From Candidatus Heimdallarchaeota archaeon (GTDB taxonomy: Archaea > Asgardarchaeota > Heimdallarchaeia > Hodarchaeales > Hodarchaeaceae), in assembly GCA_048881705.1 (NCBI GenBank), contig JBHLSH010000001.1, forward strand, positions 128,001-192,000: 64,000 bases of DNA, read 5' to 3'. Below the pieces are notes generated by a model. The model did no database searches. It was not told the origin of the DNA and was given only the letters and a program-made list of their open reading frames with translations. How positions within the stretch are numbered: position 1 is the stretch's first letter; each line of letters opens with the position of its first letter. Positions 32,180 through 37,198 of this stretch are shown here, one piece after another. The translations under genes and the position numbers were made by a program.

Positions 32180-33598
32180 TTAAAAGCTTATTTTTTTGGC
32201 TAAATCTTGAATTATTTCCCATGCCTGGTTGACATGTCTCTCTTGAGTATCGGTTTGGCCTACTACGAATCGTAGACTATAGTTTCCATTCAGTTTCGTA
32301 TGAGTTAGATAGAGTTTTCCCGTTTGATTCGCTCTTACAAGCAATTCCTCATTCATTCTATTGAGTTTCTCCATATCTCTAATGGATGAGGGCTTATATC
32401 TGAAACAAATTGTATTCAACGGAACTGGTGCTAATAATTCAAAATCATCTGCTTGTTCGATTTTCTTTTTCAGCATGTCTGTCATATCTAAATGATATCG
32501 GATTTTTTCTTGCAACCCAGAAACACCAAAATGCCTGATAACAAACCATAACTTCAATGCCCGAAATCTTCGGCCAAGTGGAACCCCCCAATCTCGATAG
32601 TTATTCACATTTCTGGCCTGCGTCTTGAGATATTCGGGAGTGATCTCAAATGTCCGTACAAGAGCCTCGGAATCCTTTATGAAGTAAGCATTGCAGTCAA
32701 AATTTGTAAACATCCACTTATGAGGATTGAATGTGAATGTGTCAACATATTCTATCCCCTCAATCATCCAACGCTTTTCAGGGAGAAGTAGGGCGGTTCC
32801 TGCCAAAGCTGCGTCCACATGAAGCCATATCTTATACTTACTACAAATTTCCCCGATACGCCTTATTGGATCAATCGCGGTGGATCCAGTCGTTCCGATC
32901 GTAGCCACAACGGCCAGTGGAGTAAATCCATCATTAAGATCCCTTTTAATGATTTCGTCTAGTTTATCAGGTCGTAGCGCATAATTCTGATCCACGGAAA
33001 CCTTCCTTAAATTGTTCTTTCCTAACCCAACGATCTTGACGTCTTTCTCAATACTCGAGTGTGTTTCACTTGAACAATATATTGTAAAAGCTCTTTTGTT
33101 ATACAATCCAGTAGCATTGACCTCATAGTGAGTAGCCTTCTCTCTTGCGGTCAAAAGTGAGCAGAGAGTTGCAGTCGATGCTGTATCTTGAATTACCCCA
33201 GAAAAGGACTTGGGTAATCCAATCATATCCCTCAACCAATTCATCATCTTTTCTTCTAGCTCTGCGGCTGCAGGGGAGGTATCCCAAATCATACACTGTG
33301 CAGCAAGAGTAGCTGTCAACATTTCAGCCAAAATAGATGGTCGGCTACTATTTGCAGGAAAATATGCGAAAAAACAGGGATGTTGCCAATGAGTAATTCC
33401 AGGAATGATTTTGTTTTCGAATTCACTGAATATGTGATTGAAATCCTCACCCACGGTTGGTGGTTCATCTGGGATCTGATTATAGATCTCACGAGGTTTA
33501 ACCTGTGATTTCACTGGATATTGTTCAACTGTCCCTAAATAATCAGTCATCCAATCAACTAGTATATGACCATTCTTACGAAATTCTTCTAAATCCAT
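32180..33598 (-). CDS. PLP-dependent aromatic L-amino acid decarboxylase (group II)
   Basis: PGITHWQHP.FFAYFP, SPAAAELE, HSSIEK, WLHVDAA, FNPHKW, DWGVPLGRRFRALKLWFV; start moved to ATG 33598. Confidence 0.92.
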   Translation of the reverse strand: MDLEEFRKNGHILVDWMTDYLGTVEQYPVKSQVKPREIYNQIPDEPPTVGEDFNHIFSEFENKIIPGITHWQHPCFFAYFPANSSRPSILAEMLTATLAAQCMIWDTSPAAAELEEKMMNWLRDMIGLPKSFSGVIQDTASTATLCSLLTAREKATHYEVNATGLYNKRAFTIYCSSETHSSIEKDVKIVGLGKNNLRKVSVDQNYALRPDKLDEIIKRDLNDGFTPLAVVATIGTTGSTAIDPIRRIGEICSKYKIWLHVDAALAGTALLLPEKRWMIEGIEYVDTFTFNPHKWMFTNFDCNAYFIKDSEALVRTFEITPEYLKTQARNVNNYRDWGVPLGRRFRALKLWFVIRHFGVSGLQEKIRYHLDMTDMLKKKIEQADDFELLAPVPLNTICFRYKPSSIRDMEKLNRMNEELLVRANQTGKLYLTHTKLNGNYSLRFVVGQTDTQERHVNQAWEIIQDLAKKISF

Positions 33599-33706
33599 TT
33601 TAAAAACCAATTTCCTTATACTAACGCTAAGAATGAACGATGTAGACTTCCAAAACTTAGGGAATCAAAATTTCACCCAAGAAGCATTTGGACAGAGGCG
33701 CGGAGA

Positions 33707-34186
33707 GTGTTTTTTAAAGTATGTTCGCACCACATTCTTGGCGATCATATTCTCGCAAACTTGGTATGGGGTTTATTTGTGGTGAATAACGAGATTTTCT
33801 CACTTGAGGAGCCTTTTTCGTTTACGGAATTAGAAAAGAAAGGTTTAAGCATTAAACGGTCGGATCTAGCACAATTTGTAGAAAAAGGGAAACTGATGAG
33901 TAAAAAGATAGGCCGAATGACAATCTATTGGAATCATCCTTCGGTGACACCCGAAGCTACAACGGGCCTTGATTCCTTAGTTAATCGACTGGAATTGGAA
34001 AACCAGGAACTGAAACGTGAGCTGCAATCTGAACGTGAAAAGGTACGCCGGTTTGAAATTCAAAATGGAGTTGACGAGCCGTGGAAAGAGGCAGCACTGG
34101 CCATGGCTCAAACCCTAGCTGAGCAAAAAGGAATTTCAATGCGGGAGGTGCTTGGTTATTTCAATGCTCCCCTTAATGAATTATGA
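33707..34186 (+). CDS. Mnd1-like winged-helix plus coiled-coil protein (true start probably GTG 33779 or 33782)
   Basis: EIFS...F.FTELEK.KG...L..FVE.G.L..KKIG....YW..PS followed by a coiled coil parallels the eukaryotic Mnd1 N-terminus. Confidence 0.6.
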   Translation: MFFKVCSHHILGDHILANLVWGLFVVNNEIFSLEEPFSFTELEKKGLSIKRSDLAQFVEKGKLMSKKIGRMTIYWNHPSVTPEATTGLDSLVNRLELENQELKRELQSEREKVRRFEIQNGVDEPWKEAALAMAQTLAEQKGISMREVLGYFNAPLNEL

Positions 34187-34196
34187 AGGCGATTTG

Positions 34197-35087
34197 TCAT
34201 GTATCAAGTTCTTCCGATAAATCTGCAAGAGGAACTTCTTCCGCCTCTTTTTCTCCAGTTTCCCCTTCCTGAACCTCTCGAATCTCAGTTACTTCAGCCA
34301 CTGTCTGGAAGATGCTATGAAGATCTTTGACTCGGAATTCATGTTCTTCTTCTTCGATTATTGTTGGTAAATGAACTTCCGCCCAAACTTCATTTCCTGA
34401 ATACCCTGTGAATGCAGAATGCATCTGCAGCTTCTCTTCGATAATTACTGAGTCCGTTAAGGTCAGGTTGGCAAAGCGAAGCTCGATAAAACTGCCTTCG
34501 CTCTCCATCTCTACCTCAAGTGCAAAAGATTCCGCAAGGATTTCTGCGATAGACTGGAACATAGCTAAACTATGAATACTAGTGTCTTGTGCATTGACCA
34601 AGCAGAGATCTAGCTTTGGCCAGAGAATAAAAAGCATTCCTCGAACGTAATGTGTTTCGATAAGGTAATCCTGACTGCCTACAACCTCAGCCGGCTTCCT
34701 GCTAAACGATCTTTTCAACAAATCTGAGGCTGCACGACGGGATTTCGAATGTTTCTCGTGAATGATGGAGTAAAAATCATCTGTATGCACATAAACATCG
34801 GCCAACAGTGTGTGCCCTTCTTTGAACGAACGGGTGAGTTCCTTCACTCGCTGTGAATAACAGAATGTAGGCATCCCCTTCTTAGGCTCGCGTTTCAGTA
34901 ATAGGACGTCCAAATACCGCCTTTCTGTACATTTCGGCCGAAGCATGTTCACAACTTTGTTATTCTGACATTGTTTAAGACAAAACTCCTTCCGATCCCG
35001 AACCATTTCCTCCCAGAGTGTAACGCCAGATACCCGGTTTAAGAAGCCCTGTGCAGTTTTGGAGCTTTCATTATCTGTCCAATTCAC
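34197..35087 (-). CDS. Hypothetical protein with an acidic tail
   Basis: 296-aa ORF, no recognised family; convergent with the Mnd1-like gene (10 bp gap). Confidence 0.65.
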   Translation of the reverse strand: MNWTDNESSKTAQGFLNRVSGVTLWEEMVRDRKEFCLKQCQNNKVVNMLRPKCTERRYLDVLLLKREPKKGMPTFCYSQRVKELTRSFKEGHTLLADVYVHTDDFYSIIHEKHSKSRRAASDLLKRSFSRKPAEVVGSQDYLIETHYVRGMLFILWPKLDLCLVNAQDTSIHSLAMFQSIAEILAESFALEVEMESEGSFIELRFANLTLTDSVIIEEKLQMHSAFTGYSGNEVWAEVHLPTIIEEEEHEFRVKDLHSIFQTVAEVTEIREVQEGETGEKEAEEVPLADLSEELDT

Positions 35088-35410: not shown

Positions 35411-36487
35411 TCATCTCATTTCCAGTGAGGTTCCACAAAAAGCACACACAGGTTGATCTTTCCCTTCCTGTACCTCGTTTGTGTTTTTGCAGTTGTGACA
35501 AAGGATGTAAACATTCACATCGTCTAATCTTCCTAGCGTGCCTTTTCCAGATAATGTTGAACCCTCCGCCTGCTCTTTCATTTTCATGAAAAGCGGATTT
35601 GCTAATTCTTCTAAATTTTTTAAGGTATCTTGCAGATCTGAGAATTTTGCTTGCTCCTCTGCTTCTCGCTTCTTATGCTCGTGGTATTCTTTTCGTTGCT
35701 TCGGCGTCATTCGTTCTAATTGTTGTAATTCTCTCAATCGATCCCGAAATTGATTTCGTTGAGTAAGGGATAATGAGTCGAGGAATTCGGGTGTGAAATT
35801 GGCTAGATCTACCAAATTCATGCTAGAAAAATCAATTTCATCTAAATTAGATGCTATATTCACAGAATTTGCCTGGGGCGGAGGGGGGGGAGGAGGAACT
35901 CCTGAAATTCCCTGCGATGGAGGGTGATTATTCGCGTTCATCCCCTTTGCTACTGATTGAATCTCGAACCGCAAATCCTTACGGATGGTGGCCAGAATCT
36001 CCCTCCGAATATCGTTTAAAGAGATTCGTCCTTGGTTTGCATTTTTGGATTTCATTTCTTCGATTTGTGCTTCTAGCGTTTTAAGACGTTTTGCAAGACC
36101 CTCGTCCACACCAGTACTTACCATACTCATCTGTTTTATGCACGACTCGCACATTCCATCAATGAGCTCATCTTGAAAGGCCCCTCGACCACAGGTTCGG
36201 CAGCTTTGAACCATACTAGCTAAATCAGAAAGCATACCACGCGACCTGTTACCTTTTACTCCCGATTTTTTTCTTATAGGTTGAGAACGTCTTTTTTGCC
36301 CAGATGAACCCCTTTTGGGTTTTTTAATGGTAGGACTAGGTTTTTCAGAAACATCTACCCTGATACGGGACGTTTGGAAACTTCCCAATTCTGCGAGAAC
36401 TTCATCAACCAGCTGAAAGGGATTTTTGAGAACATTCACGACCGAAGTGAGACGTTTGATTGTTTCTTTTTCTAATCCATCTGACAT
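35411..36487 (-). CDS. Multidomain protein: two C4 Zn sites, a short coiled coil and a polyproline tract
   Basis: CRTC...CESC, LNDIRREILATIRKDL, GVPPPPPPPQ, C-terminal CHNC...CAFC; 3 bp after the stop of the upstream gene with a GGTGA SD-like site. Confidence 0.75.
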   Translation of the reverse strand: MSDGLEKETIKRLTSVVNVLKNPFQLVDEVLAELGSFQTSRIRVDVSEKPSPTIKKPKRGSSGQKRRSQPIRKKSGVKGNRSRGMLSDLASMVQSCRTCGRGAFQDELIDGMCESCIKQMSMVSTGVDEGLAKRLKTLEAQIEEMKSKNANQGRISLNDIRREILATIRKDLRFEIQSVAKGMNANNHPPSQGISGVPPPPPPPQANSVNIASNLDEIDFSSMNLVDLANFTPEFLDSLSLTQRNQFRDRLRELQQLERMTPKQRKEYHEHKKREAEEQAKFSDLQDTLKNLEELANPLFMKMKEQAEGSTLSGKGTLGRLDDVNVYILCHNCKNTNEVQEGKDQPVCAFCGTSLEMR

Positions 36488-36490
36488 TTA

Positions 36491-37198
36491 CTACTCACCA
36501 CGATCTGGAATTTCCAATCCCGCCCTTTTCATAATAGAGCGCGCGGCCATTCCCTCGAACGAATCTGCTCCCTTCTTTGAATCATCAATTATAATTGCTA
36601 CCATTTTTACAAGGGATTCGAAGGATGGATTGATGAAATAGCGGATACCTGCTTCGAGAAGTTCACCAGGAGTGATATTACGCCGAATTGCTGCTTGGTT
36701 AATTGCGGGCATATTCTGCTTAATTGTATCTAATACTTGTGGATCTAGGATTTGGATCTCAACCAGCTGTTTTTCCAGATTCTCAATGTAGCTTTTTTTT
36801 TCTTTTAATTGGATGGTTAGGTTTTGTACGGACCGCTGGTAGTCTAAAAACCTCGAATCATCCAACAGACCACTAGAACGAACGTAATCAGTGCATACAC
36901 CACGGGAATCATTCACAATGATGTTTTGTTCCCTTTCAACCTTCTGTGCATAAAATTCTCGCCAATAGGTTTGATTAGGGAGCCCCACGTAACGTCGAGA
37001 TTGTCCCTTGGGAGATGAGACCTTAACGATCGCTACCTGATCCTGTGTTCGGTGGAGGGCCCCATCTACCTTCCCCCTCGACCATTCCAGTCTTGCTGCA
37101 AGATCTCTGACGGTCACAGGTTGAGCTAACCGTTCCAGCCTTGAAATGAGCTGAAAGTCGGTTACTTCGGAATCTCCACCGAAACCTTTGGGCACCAA
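36491..37198 (-). CDS. Winged-helix plus coiled-coil protein
   Basis: LERLAQPVTVRDLAARLEWSRGKVDGALHR helix-turn-helix; coiled coil at residues ~118-148. Confidence 0.72.
   Translation of the reverse strand: MVPKGFGGDSEVTDFQLISRLERLAQPVTVRDLAARLEWSRGKVDGALHRTQDQVAIVKVSSPKGQSRRYVGLPNQTYWREFYAQKVEREQNIIVNDSRGVCTDYVRSSGLLDDSRFLDYQRSVQNLTIQLKEKKSYIENLEKQLVEIQILDPQVLDTIKQNMPAINQAAIRRNITPGELLEAGIRYFINPSFESLVKMVAIIIDDSKKGADSFEGMAARSIMKRAGLEIPDRGE

Follow-up and report, generated by a model that had tools for sequence, protein, structure and literature searches.

Hop2-Mnd1 and Swi5-Sfr1 are regarded as eukaryote-specific helpers of Rad51 and Dmc1, for which they stabilise the filament and aid the capture of duplex DNA, and Hop2 and Mnd1 are routinely used as markers of the 'meiotic toolkit'. 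Kang et al. reported that HHpred matches both Hop2 and Mnd1 to Swi5 (PMC4402518). In the Hop2-Mnd1 complex, conservation is concentrated in the winged helix and in the C-terminal module; this module, the LZ3-with-capping-helices unit (LZ3wCH), superposes on the C-terminal bundle of Swi5-Sfr1, and LZ3wCH alone binds the Dmc1 filament (PMC4402518). In mouse SWI5, the last nine residues, with F83 and L85, are required for binding to RAD51 (PMC5291256).

Here we describe a gene from a Hodarchaeales-type Asgard archaeon, located in the window (the whole 64,000-nucleotide stretch of DNA that was analysed), which we consider fairly probable to encode a compact recombinase accessory factor of the Hop2/Mnd1/Swi5 superfamily, predicted to act as a cofactor of RadA. 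Helpers of the strand-exchange enzyme that were thought to occur only in eukaryotes probably have an archaeal relative.

Gene model, architecture and distribution

The open reading frame from 33707 to 34186 on the forward strand, in which a sequence-only reading of the window had recognised a Mnd1-like gene, was found in the window, and the peptide quoted in that reading was reproduced from the DNA. The gene is real, but its start lies downstream of 33707. We took the coding sequence as 33779–34186 (+), 135 aa plus stop, beginning with GTG, because the first 24 codons of the longer frame are unconserved, the ATG of ten relatives aligns with the GTG at 33779, and a GGGG/GGGA motif stands 7–8 nt upstream. 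Homologues of 131–144 aa begin at the same position, and the length of 135 aa is also that of P0002, which is 93% identical. The GGGG at 33768–33771 (+), 7 nt before the start, is a candidate ribosome-binding site, and GGGG or GGGA is equally spaced from the start in most of the aligned relatives. The over-extended part of the frame (33707–33778, +) forms an open frame in the window and its closest relative alone, the other relatives having stops or unrelated sequence there, and is most likely a noncoding 5′ leader.

The encoded protein reads as three parts: a Mnd1/Hop2-type winged helix, one leucine zipper of 4–5 heptads, and two capping helices carrying an aromatic-acidic motif (residue numbers refer to the 134-aa translation beginning at 33782). 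The winged helix (residues 1–55; 33782–33946, +), with the wing KKIGRMTIYW, shows the order H-H-H-beta-beta in the AlphaFold2 model and was aligned with Mnd1 and Hop2 by hhalign and with mammalian MND1 by BLASTP. The zipper (residues 62–94; 33965–34063, +) forms one 33-residue helix in both AlphaFold2 models; its heptads, read from the sequence, place L63, L70, L77, E84 and F91 at position d and V67, N74, L81 and V88 at position a. The capping helices and C-terminal motif (residues 100–134, PWKEAALAMAQTLAEQKGISMREVLGYFNAPLNEL; 34079–34183, +) were delimited by family conservation and by the match of the window protein to Pfam Swi5 positions 50–75. AlphaFold2, supplied with the family alignment, returned the winged helix (1–55), a flexible linker, the long helix (62–94) and short helices at 100–116 and 120–126 with a mean pLDDT of 78.8, and a model of the C-terminal half alone reached a pLDDT of 84.6. 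Prediction of a homodimer from two copies scored 0.38 against a mark of 0.42, giving no verdict either way.

A word-indexed search returned 25 homologues of 94–144 aa with 53–93% identity, from sources labelled, where named, Thorarchaeota, Hodarchaeales and Hodarchaeum, with one divergent member labelled Promethearchaeota. An exhaustive HMMER search of 1.84 billion representative proteins, clustered at 50% identity, yielded 20 clusters at E<1e-3, and the archaeal profile matched no eukaryotic protein in this set at that threshold. The family is small, with members found in Asgard archaea only. All members share one layout, in which a winged helix (wing KKIGRMxxYW) is joined by a linker and zipper that vary in length to a strongly conserved tail with the consensus D-x-PW-K/R-E-x-A-x-x-M-A-x-x-L-A-E-x-x-G-x-T/S-x-x-E-V-L-x-Y/H-F-G/N-A/V-P followed by acidic residues. 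No other region of the family is as well conserved as this tail: W101 is invariant, and A105, M108, A109, V123, L124, F127 and P130 are nearly so.

Full-length matches were present in about 14 of 400 Asgard genomes. The carriers comprised 8 of the 22 genomes of the window's genus, both genomes of a sister family, and one genome from each of three further families; subgroups drawn from several families of the phylum are 25–35% identical to one another. The gene is accessory and patchy in Asgard archaea, neither core nor universal, since near-complete genomes of the same genus are without it at the same locus. One genome (G397) contains two members, at C3:24717-25160 and C40:11057-11638, which may be paralogues that could pair; one of the two is part of a 282-aa frame in which the winged helix is duplicated, as in the member P0029. 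Because the gene stands in an archaeal context in many MAGs, eukaryotic contamination, already thought unlikely in the sequence-only reading, could be ruled out.

Relation to Mnd1, Hop2 and Swi5

Next, we compared the archaeal family with its eukaryotic counterparts using profile alignments. The eukaryotic profiles were built from vertebrate sequences only. The bait for Mnd1 was a 60-aa piece of human MND1, made up of the text quoted in the sequence-only reading and five further residues; it matched the database sequence of human MND1 at 100% identity, and so did the string quoted in that reading. The bait for Hop2 combined 35 residues from the PDB search output with six others. Only the database proteins returned by these bait searches entered the analyses. 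In hhalign, the archaeal family (39 sequences) aligned with 41 vertebrate Mnd1 sequences at 96.2% probability (P 2.7e-9; residues 5–134 vs 20–209) and with 50 vertebrate Hop2 sequences at 95.0% (P 3.6e-8; 4–134 vs 15–201), each time with a gap of ~60 residues opposite the middle of the eukaryotic protein. The winged helix alone gave 94.6% with Mnd1 (P 7.2e-8; 5–55 vs 20–77) and 95.2% with Hop2 (P 2.5e-8; 4–55 vs 15–69), and the C-terminal half alone gave 21% and 11%, respectively. Reversed Mnd1 templates, used as controls, gave 0.2–1.4% (P 0.03–0.27) with no consistent aligned range. Vertebrate Mnd1 and vertebrate Hop2, compared with the same profiles, matched each other at only 14.9% (P 1.8e-3; 36–211 vs 28–203). 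Each of the two eukaryotic paralogues is thus linked more strongly to the archaeal family than to the other paralogue. These alignments support a genuine, if remote, relationship of the family to Mnd1, with homology at the family level; of the proposed Mnd1-like identity, this relationship held, but an assignment to Mnd1 specifically is not warranted, as Hop2 is equally close.

BLASTP reproduced the alignment with MND1 given in the sequence-only reading: residues 5–54 of the window protein matched residues 20–76 of a mammalian MND1 (P0066) with 29% identity and an E-value of 2e-4 for the single comparison. A divergent archaeal member, P0031, aligned with mammalian MND1 in one alignment (38–183 vs 48–201; E 5e-7), ending in W...FG(V/I)P(D/E)DF, and the C-terminal motif region of the family was aligned with the Mnd1 C-terminus (W...FGIPEDF) in both hhalign and BLASTP.

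The Pfam profiles had cut-offs of 23.5 bits for Mnd1, 22.1 for Swi5 and 22.8 for TBPIP. All 26 close members matched the Mnd1 HTH at E<=1, 20 matched Swi5 and 12 matched TBPIP/Hop2. A match to the Pfam Mnd1 profile, which had been named as a check of the Mnd1-like identity, was thus obtained across the close members, two or three of which reach the cut-off (P0015, 26.3 bits; P0014, 25.6; P0040 residues 57–199, 23.5), but the window protein scored only 14.6 against 23.5 bits. Family scores for TBPIP were at most 21.4 bits. For the close subfamily, Pfam ranked Mnd1 above ArsR/SmtB, PadR, MarR, BlaI/MecI, TrmB and Sso10a; for the thermophile-type members, other wHTH families scored as well as Mnd1. 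Genuine Mnd1 and Hop2 proteins cross-match Penicillinase_R, as does the archaeal family. When a vertebrate-only Mnd1 HMM was run against the 15,298 six-frame ORFs of the genome, the gene was the top match with an E-value of 0.61 (0.4–0.6 over the Mnd1 searches of this genome); with the corresponding Hop2 HMM, it was not among the top matches in the same ORFs. Genome-wide searches of five genomes with Pfam LZ3wCH (PF18517) did not return the gene among the matches, and P0031 was the only member to match this profile (17.7 bits, E 0.0038).

In a PDB profile search with the whole protein, the top match was Giardia Mnd1 (4y66_A), followed by mouse Hop2 (2mh2). Foldseek with the whole model placed 2mh2 and three 4y66 chains in the top six, with 4y66 aligned over 132–138 columns, although the E-values were weak (0.03 to 0.46); 2mh2 and 4y66 chains thus came first in the comparison with Hop2-Mnd1 structures that the sequence-only reading had proposed. 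In an ESM-Atlas shape search, 7 of 10 rows were eukaryotic Hop2/Mnd1 clusters.

The family resembles Mnd1 and Hop2 (PSMC3IP/TBPIP; PF03962, PF07106, PF18517; structures 4y66, of Giardia Hop2-Mnd1, and 2mh2, of the mouse Hop2 winged helix) in its N-terminal winged helix with an IG-x3-YW wing, in the parallel-type leucine zipper directly after it, in the C-terminal helices ending in W...F-G/N-x-P-acidic, in the end-to-end collinear alignment, and in the concentration of conservation in the winged helix and C-terminal module. It differs in its length of 135 aa, compared with about 205–217 aa, and in having one zipper of ~33 residues instead of a long coiled coil of three (LZ1–LZ3) that meet at kinked junctions, the middle coiled coil LZ1–LZ2 being missing. 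It further differs in being encoded by a single gene in the genome, whereas Hop2 and Mnd1 are two paralogous subunits of an obligate heterodimer, and in being an accessory gene of an archaeal host that leaves the Pfam LZ3wCH profile unmatched. The protein had been described as an Mnd1 lacking its long C-terminal part. This description has to be corrected: the zipper and capping helices are present, are the most conserved part and match Swi5, and it is LZ1–LZ2 that is missing.

The C-terminal half was compared with Swi5. The window protein itself scored 16.1 bits against Pfam Swi5 (cut-off 22.1), over model positions 50–75 only. In divergent members, the zipper region aligned to Swi5 positions 1–45, and three members passed the cut-off with matches to model positions 1–79 of 80: P0040 residues 57–199 (29.4 bits), P0031 (28.3) and P0028 (24.5). 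In six-frame scans of G005, G078 and G007, the genome-wide best Swi5 match was the C-terminal half of the gene, and the best Mnd1 HTH match was the N-terminal half of the same gene; none of the control genomes contained a sequence passing the Swi5 or Mnd1 cut-off. Other coiled-coil proteins of the scanned genomes reached at most 15 bits with Swi5, over model positions 1–48 only. In a PDB profile search with the C-terminal half, S. pombe Swi5 (3viq_B) was the only match covering the full length (2–73 vs 3–83 of 85), and Foldseek with the model of this half ranked 3viq_B first and 3viq_D second out of 350,542 chains, with weak E-values.

In the alignment of P0031 with S. pombe Swi5, ...WREIALEMAKALAEMRGVTLQEVLEYFGV stands opposite ...IRDIALGMIGKVAEHEKCTSVELFDRFGV and reaches the shared FGV, so that ...EVLEYFGV of the archaeal protein aligns with ...ELFDRFGV. 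The archaeal tail closes with the nearly invariant F127-x-A/V-P followed by acidic residues (YFNAP-x-D/E), which supplies a counterpart of the C-terminal Phe/aliphatic/acidic motif of Swi5 (mouse F83, L85 and D89). By position, F127 would correspond to the RAD51-binding F83 of mouse SWI5, the residue-by-residue mapping being our inference.

Compared with Swi5/Sae3 (PF07061; S. pombe 3viq chain B; mouse SWI5), the C-terminal 75 residues of the archaeal proteins span the Swi5 model in full. In its capping region, P0031 shares about 40% identity with S. pombe Swi5, and a natural archaeal form of 80 aa (P0032) is without the winged helix. Unlike the archaeal proteins, Swi5 is without an N-terminal winged helix, and it works with an Sfr1/Mei5 partner for which PF10376 found no counterpart in G000, G005, G007 or G078; in G397, the profile gave one 16.6-bit match elsewhere in the genome. 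Taken at the level of domains, the zipper and capping helices together appear to constitute a whole Swi5 domain and the counterpart of the LZ3wCH of Hop2-Mnd1. The Mnd1/Hop2 and Swi5 signals agree with each other, because Hop2 and Mnd1 are linked to Swi5 by HHpred and LZ3wCH superposes on the Swi5-Sfr1 bundle.

Genomic setting and candidate partners

The genome neighborhood shows a conserved order of a divergent tgtA, the Mnd1-like gene, and then a convergent gene of ~300 aa belonging to no known family. In the window, a pyridoxal-dependent decarboxylase of the aromatic amino acid type (32180–33610, −) lies between tgtA and the Mnd1-like gene; at loci L004–L008, tgtA is directly adjacent to the Mnd1-like gene; and in G074 and G067, tgtA is directly beside the 299-aa gene, with 90–240 bp between them and no Mnd1-like gene. 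From these three arrangements, the tgtA flank is a site of gene gain and loss. In another organism, on two short contigs, the Swi5-sized P0032 without a winged helix lies at L026:505-747 (+), 139 bp downstream of a divergent tgtA. A functional four-gene module was considered and rejected: the ~300-aa neighbour is present in genomes without the gene and absent from distant genomes with it. The arrangement is synteny and not a functional module, since each of the two occurs without the other.

The convergent neighbour in the window (34197–35087, −) encodes a 296-aa protein in which a Cys-rich stretch, CLKQCQNNKVVNMLRPKC, is conserved and the tail is acidic. The protein has no Pfam match, is 56–65% identical across the genus, and also occurs in genomes without the Mnd1-like gene. 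Beyond it, at 35411–36487 (−), lies a gene for a 358-aa protein that combines two zinc-ribbon-like CxxC pairs with a coiled coil and seven consecutive prolines, matched no family above any Pfam cut-off and is 34% identical to the product of a 354-aa gene in L008 (8652–9716). The following gene (36491–37198, −) encodes a 235-aa wHTH coiled-coil protein that is confined to the genus and present in 20 of 21 genomes regardless of the Mnd1-like gene. Its profile matched the archaeal family at 79.5% (P 1.5e-5), Mnd1 at 12.5% and Hop2 at 0.3%, and it may be a distant paralogue. As a 'Hop2-like' partner it was rejected, given the 0.3% match to Hop2 and the lack of co-occurrence with the Mnd1-like gene; an earlier matching of its C-terminal 'GLEIP' to Hop2 also fell away, as the string is not conserved in the neighbour's own family.

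No second copy of the family was found in the genome, where the family profile finds one gene at E<=1, and no recombination genes lie near the gene at the locus. Three strong Rad51/RadA-family genes are present elsewhere in the genome (G000) outside the window, at C1:22670-23410, C82:12753-13493 and C40:33632-34282. Every genome of the genus, including single-contig assemblies, contains 3–5 strong Rad51/RadA-family paralogues (210–319 bits), a notable recombinase expansion; their number does not track the presence of the gene.

Predicted action, alternatives and implications

By analogy with the eukaryotic cofactors, the protein would dimerise through its zipper, most likely by self-pairing, which is favoured since no paralogue and no Sfr1/Mei5-like partner was found in the genome. 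Such a dimer would juxtapose two winged helices for binding to duplex DNA, and the zipper with its capping helices, including F127, may dock on the RadA-ssDNA filament. Docking in this manner would make the filament more stable and help it to take up duplex DNA for strand invasion. The action with RadA, which the sequence-only reading had also suggested, is a prediction.

A true homologue of Hop2, Mnd1 and Swi5 could have a different job in archaea, for example as a regulator that binds DNA as a dimer, or as a factor in nucleoid structure or segregation, the cofactor role being exclusively eukaryotic. We regard this as unlikely, though as the explanation to be taken most seriously beside a RadA cofactor. 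The accessory, patchy distribution with near-complete genomes of the same genus lacking the gene, the 3–5 RadA paralogues kept by all genomes of the genus with or without it, the distance from recombination genes, and the common use of a winged helix plus zipper as a regulator layout are all consistent with a different job. Against it, conservation peaks in the Swi5-like tail and not in the DNA-binding domain, and the Phe motif of this tail serves RAD51 binding in mouse SWI5. A DNA-binding regulator would also hardly be expected to occur without its winged helix, as does the 80-aa form encoded at the same locus in another organism.

It is quite improbable, in our judgement, that the protein is a generic archaeal wHTH coiled-coil protein that resembles Mnd1, Hop2 and Swi5 through convergence or coiled-coil composition, with no specific common ancestry. 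As a fold, the winged helix appears generic and cannot by itself discriminate: in VIA-align against the PDB, ArsR, PadR and MarR winged helices scored Z 7–8 and Hop2 (2mh2) Z 6.6. Prokaryotic wHTH regulators (ArsR/SmtB, PadR, MarR, BlaI/MecI, TrmB and Sso10a) share this fold, at Z about 7, and are likewise small dimeric DNA binders, but none has a Swi5-like tail. Further observations in the same direction are that every match of the window's own sequence lies below threshold, that many designed coiled coils were listed above Swi5 in the PDB search with the C-terminal half, and that a language-model feature search gave its best score (0.86) to unnamed bacterial clusters, with no Mnd1 lead. Common ancestry is nevertheless indicated by the two independent halves, which point to two families known to be mutually related, and by the Swi5 matches, which extend to model positions 77–79, beyond the coiled coil, with three members passing the cut-off, while other coiled-coil proteins stop at position 48 and at most 15 bits. 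In addition, the Mnd1 and Hop2 alignments are collinear end to end with negative reversed controls, and the unrelated neighbouring wHTH coiled-coil family reached only 12.5% and 0.3% against the same Mnd1 and Hop2 profiles. Acquisition from a eukaryote by horizontal transfer followed by reduction, as opposed to a pre-eukaryotic origin, is very improbable: patchiness in Asgard archaea and varying presence at a single locus within one genus would fit it, but the deep divergence in Asgard archaea (25–35% identity between subgroups from several families), the greater closeness to Mnd1 and Hop2 than these have to each other, which fits a branch before their duplication, and the lack of a close eukaryotic protein argue against it.

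Among the papers searched, none was found to report an archaeal Mnd1, Hop2 or Swi5 homologue. We tentatively suggest, while holding it to be somewhat less than an even prospect, that a winged-helix protein with a Swi5-like domain, acting as a homodimeric RadA activator in Asgard archaea, represents the ancestral architecture, from which Hop2 and Mnd1 arose when the coiled coil lengthened and the gene duplicated, and Swi5/Sae3 when the winged helix was lost. As a small expressible protein, the archaeal member could serve to test cofactor action on a RadA filament. With an archaeal family closer to both Hop2 and Mnd1 than these are to each other, and possessing a complete Swi5 domain, all three factors would trace back to one shared origin among the Asgard archaea; if the ancestral reading is true, the core of the recombinase-cofactor system, meiotic and mitotic, is older than eukaryotes.
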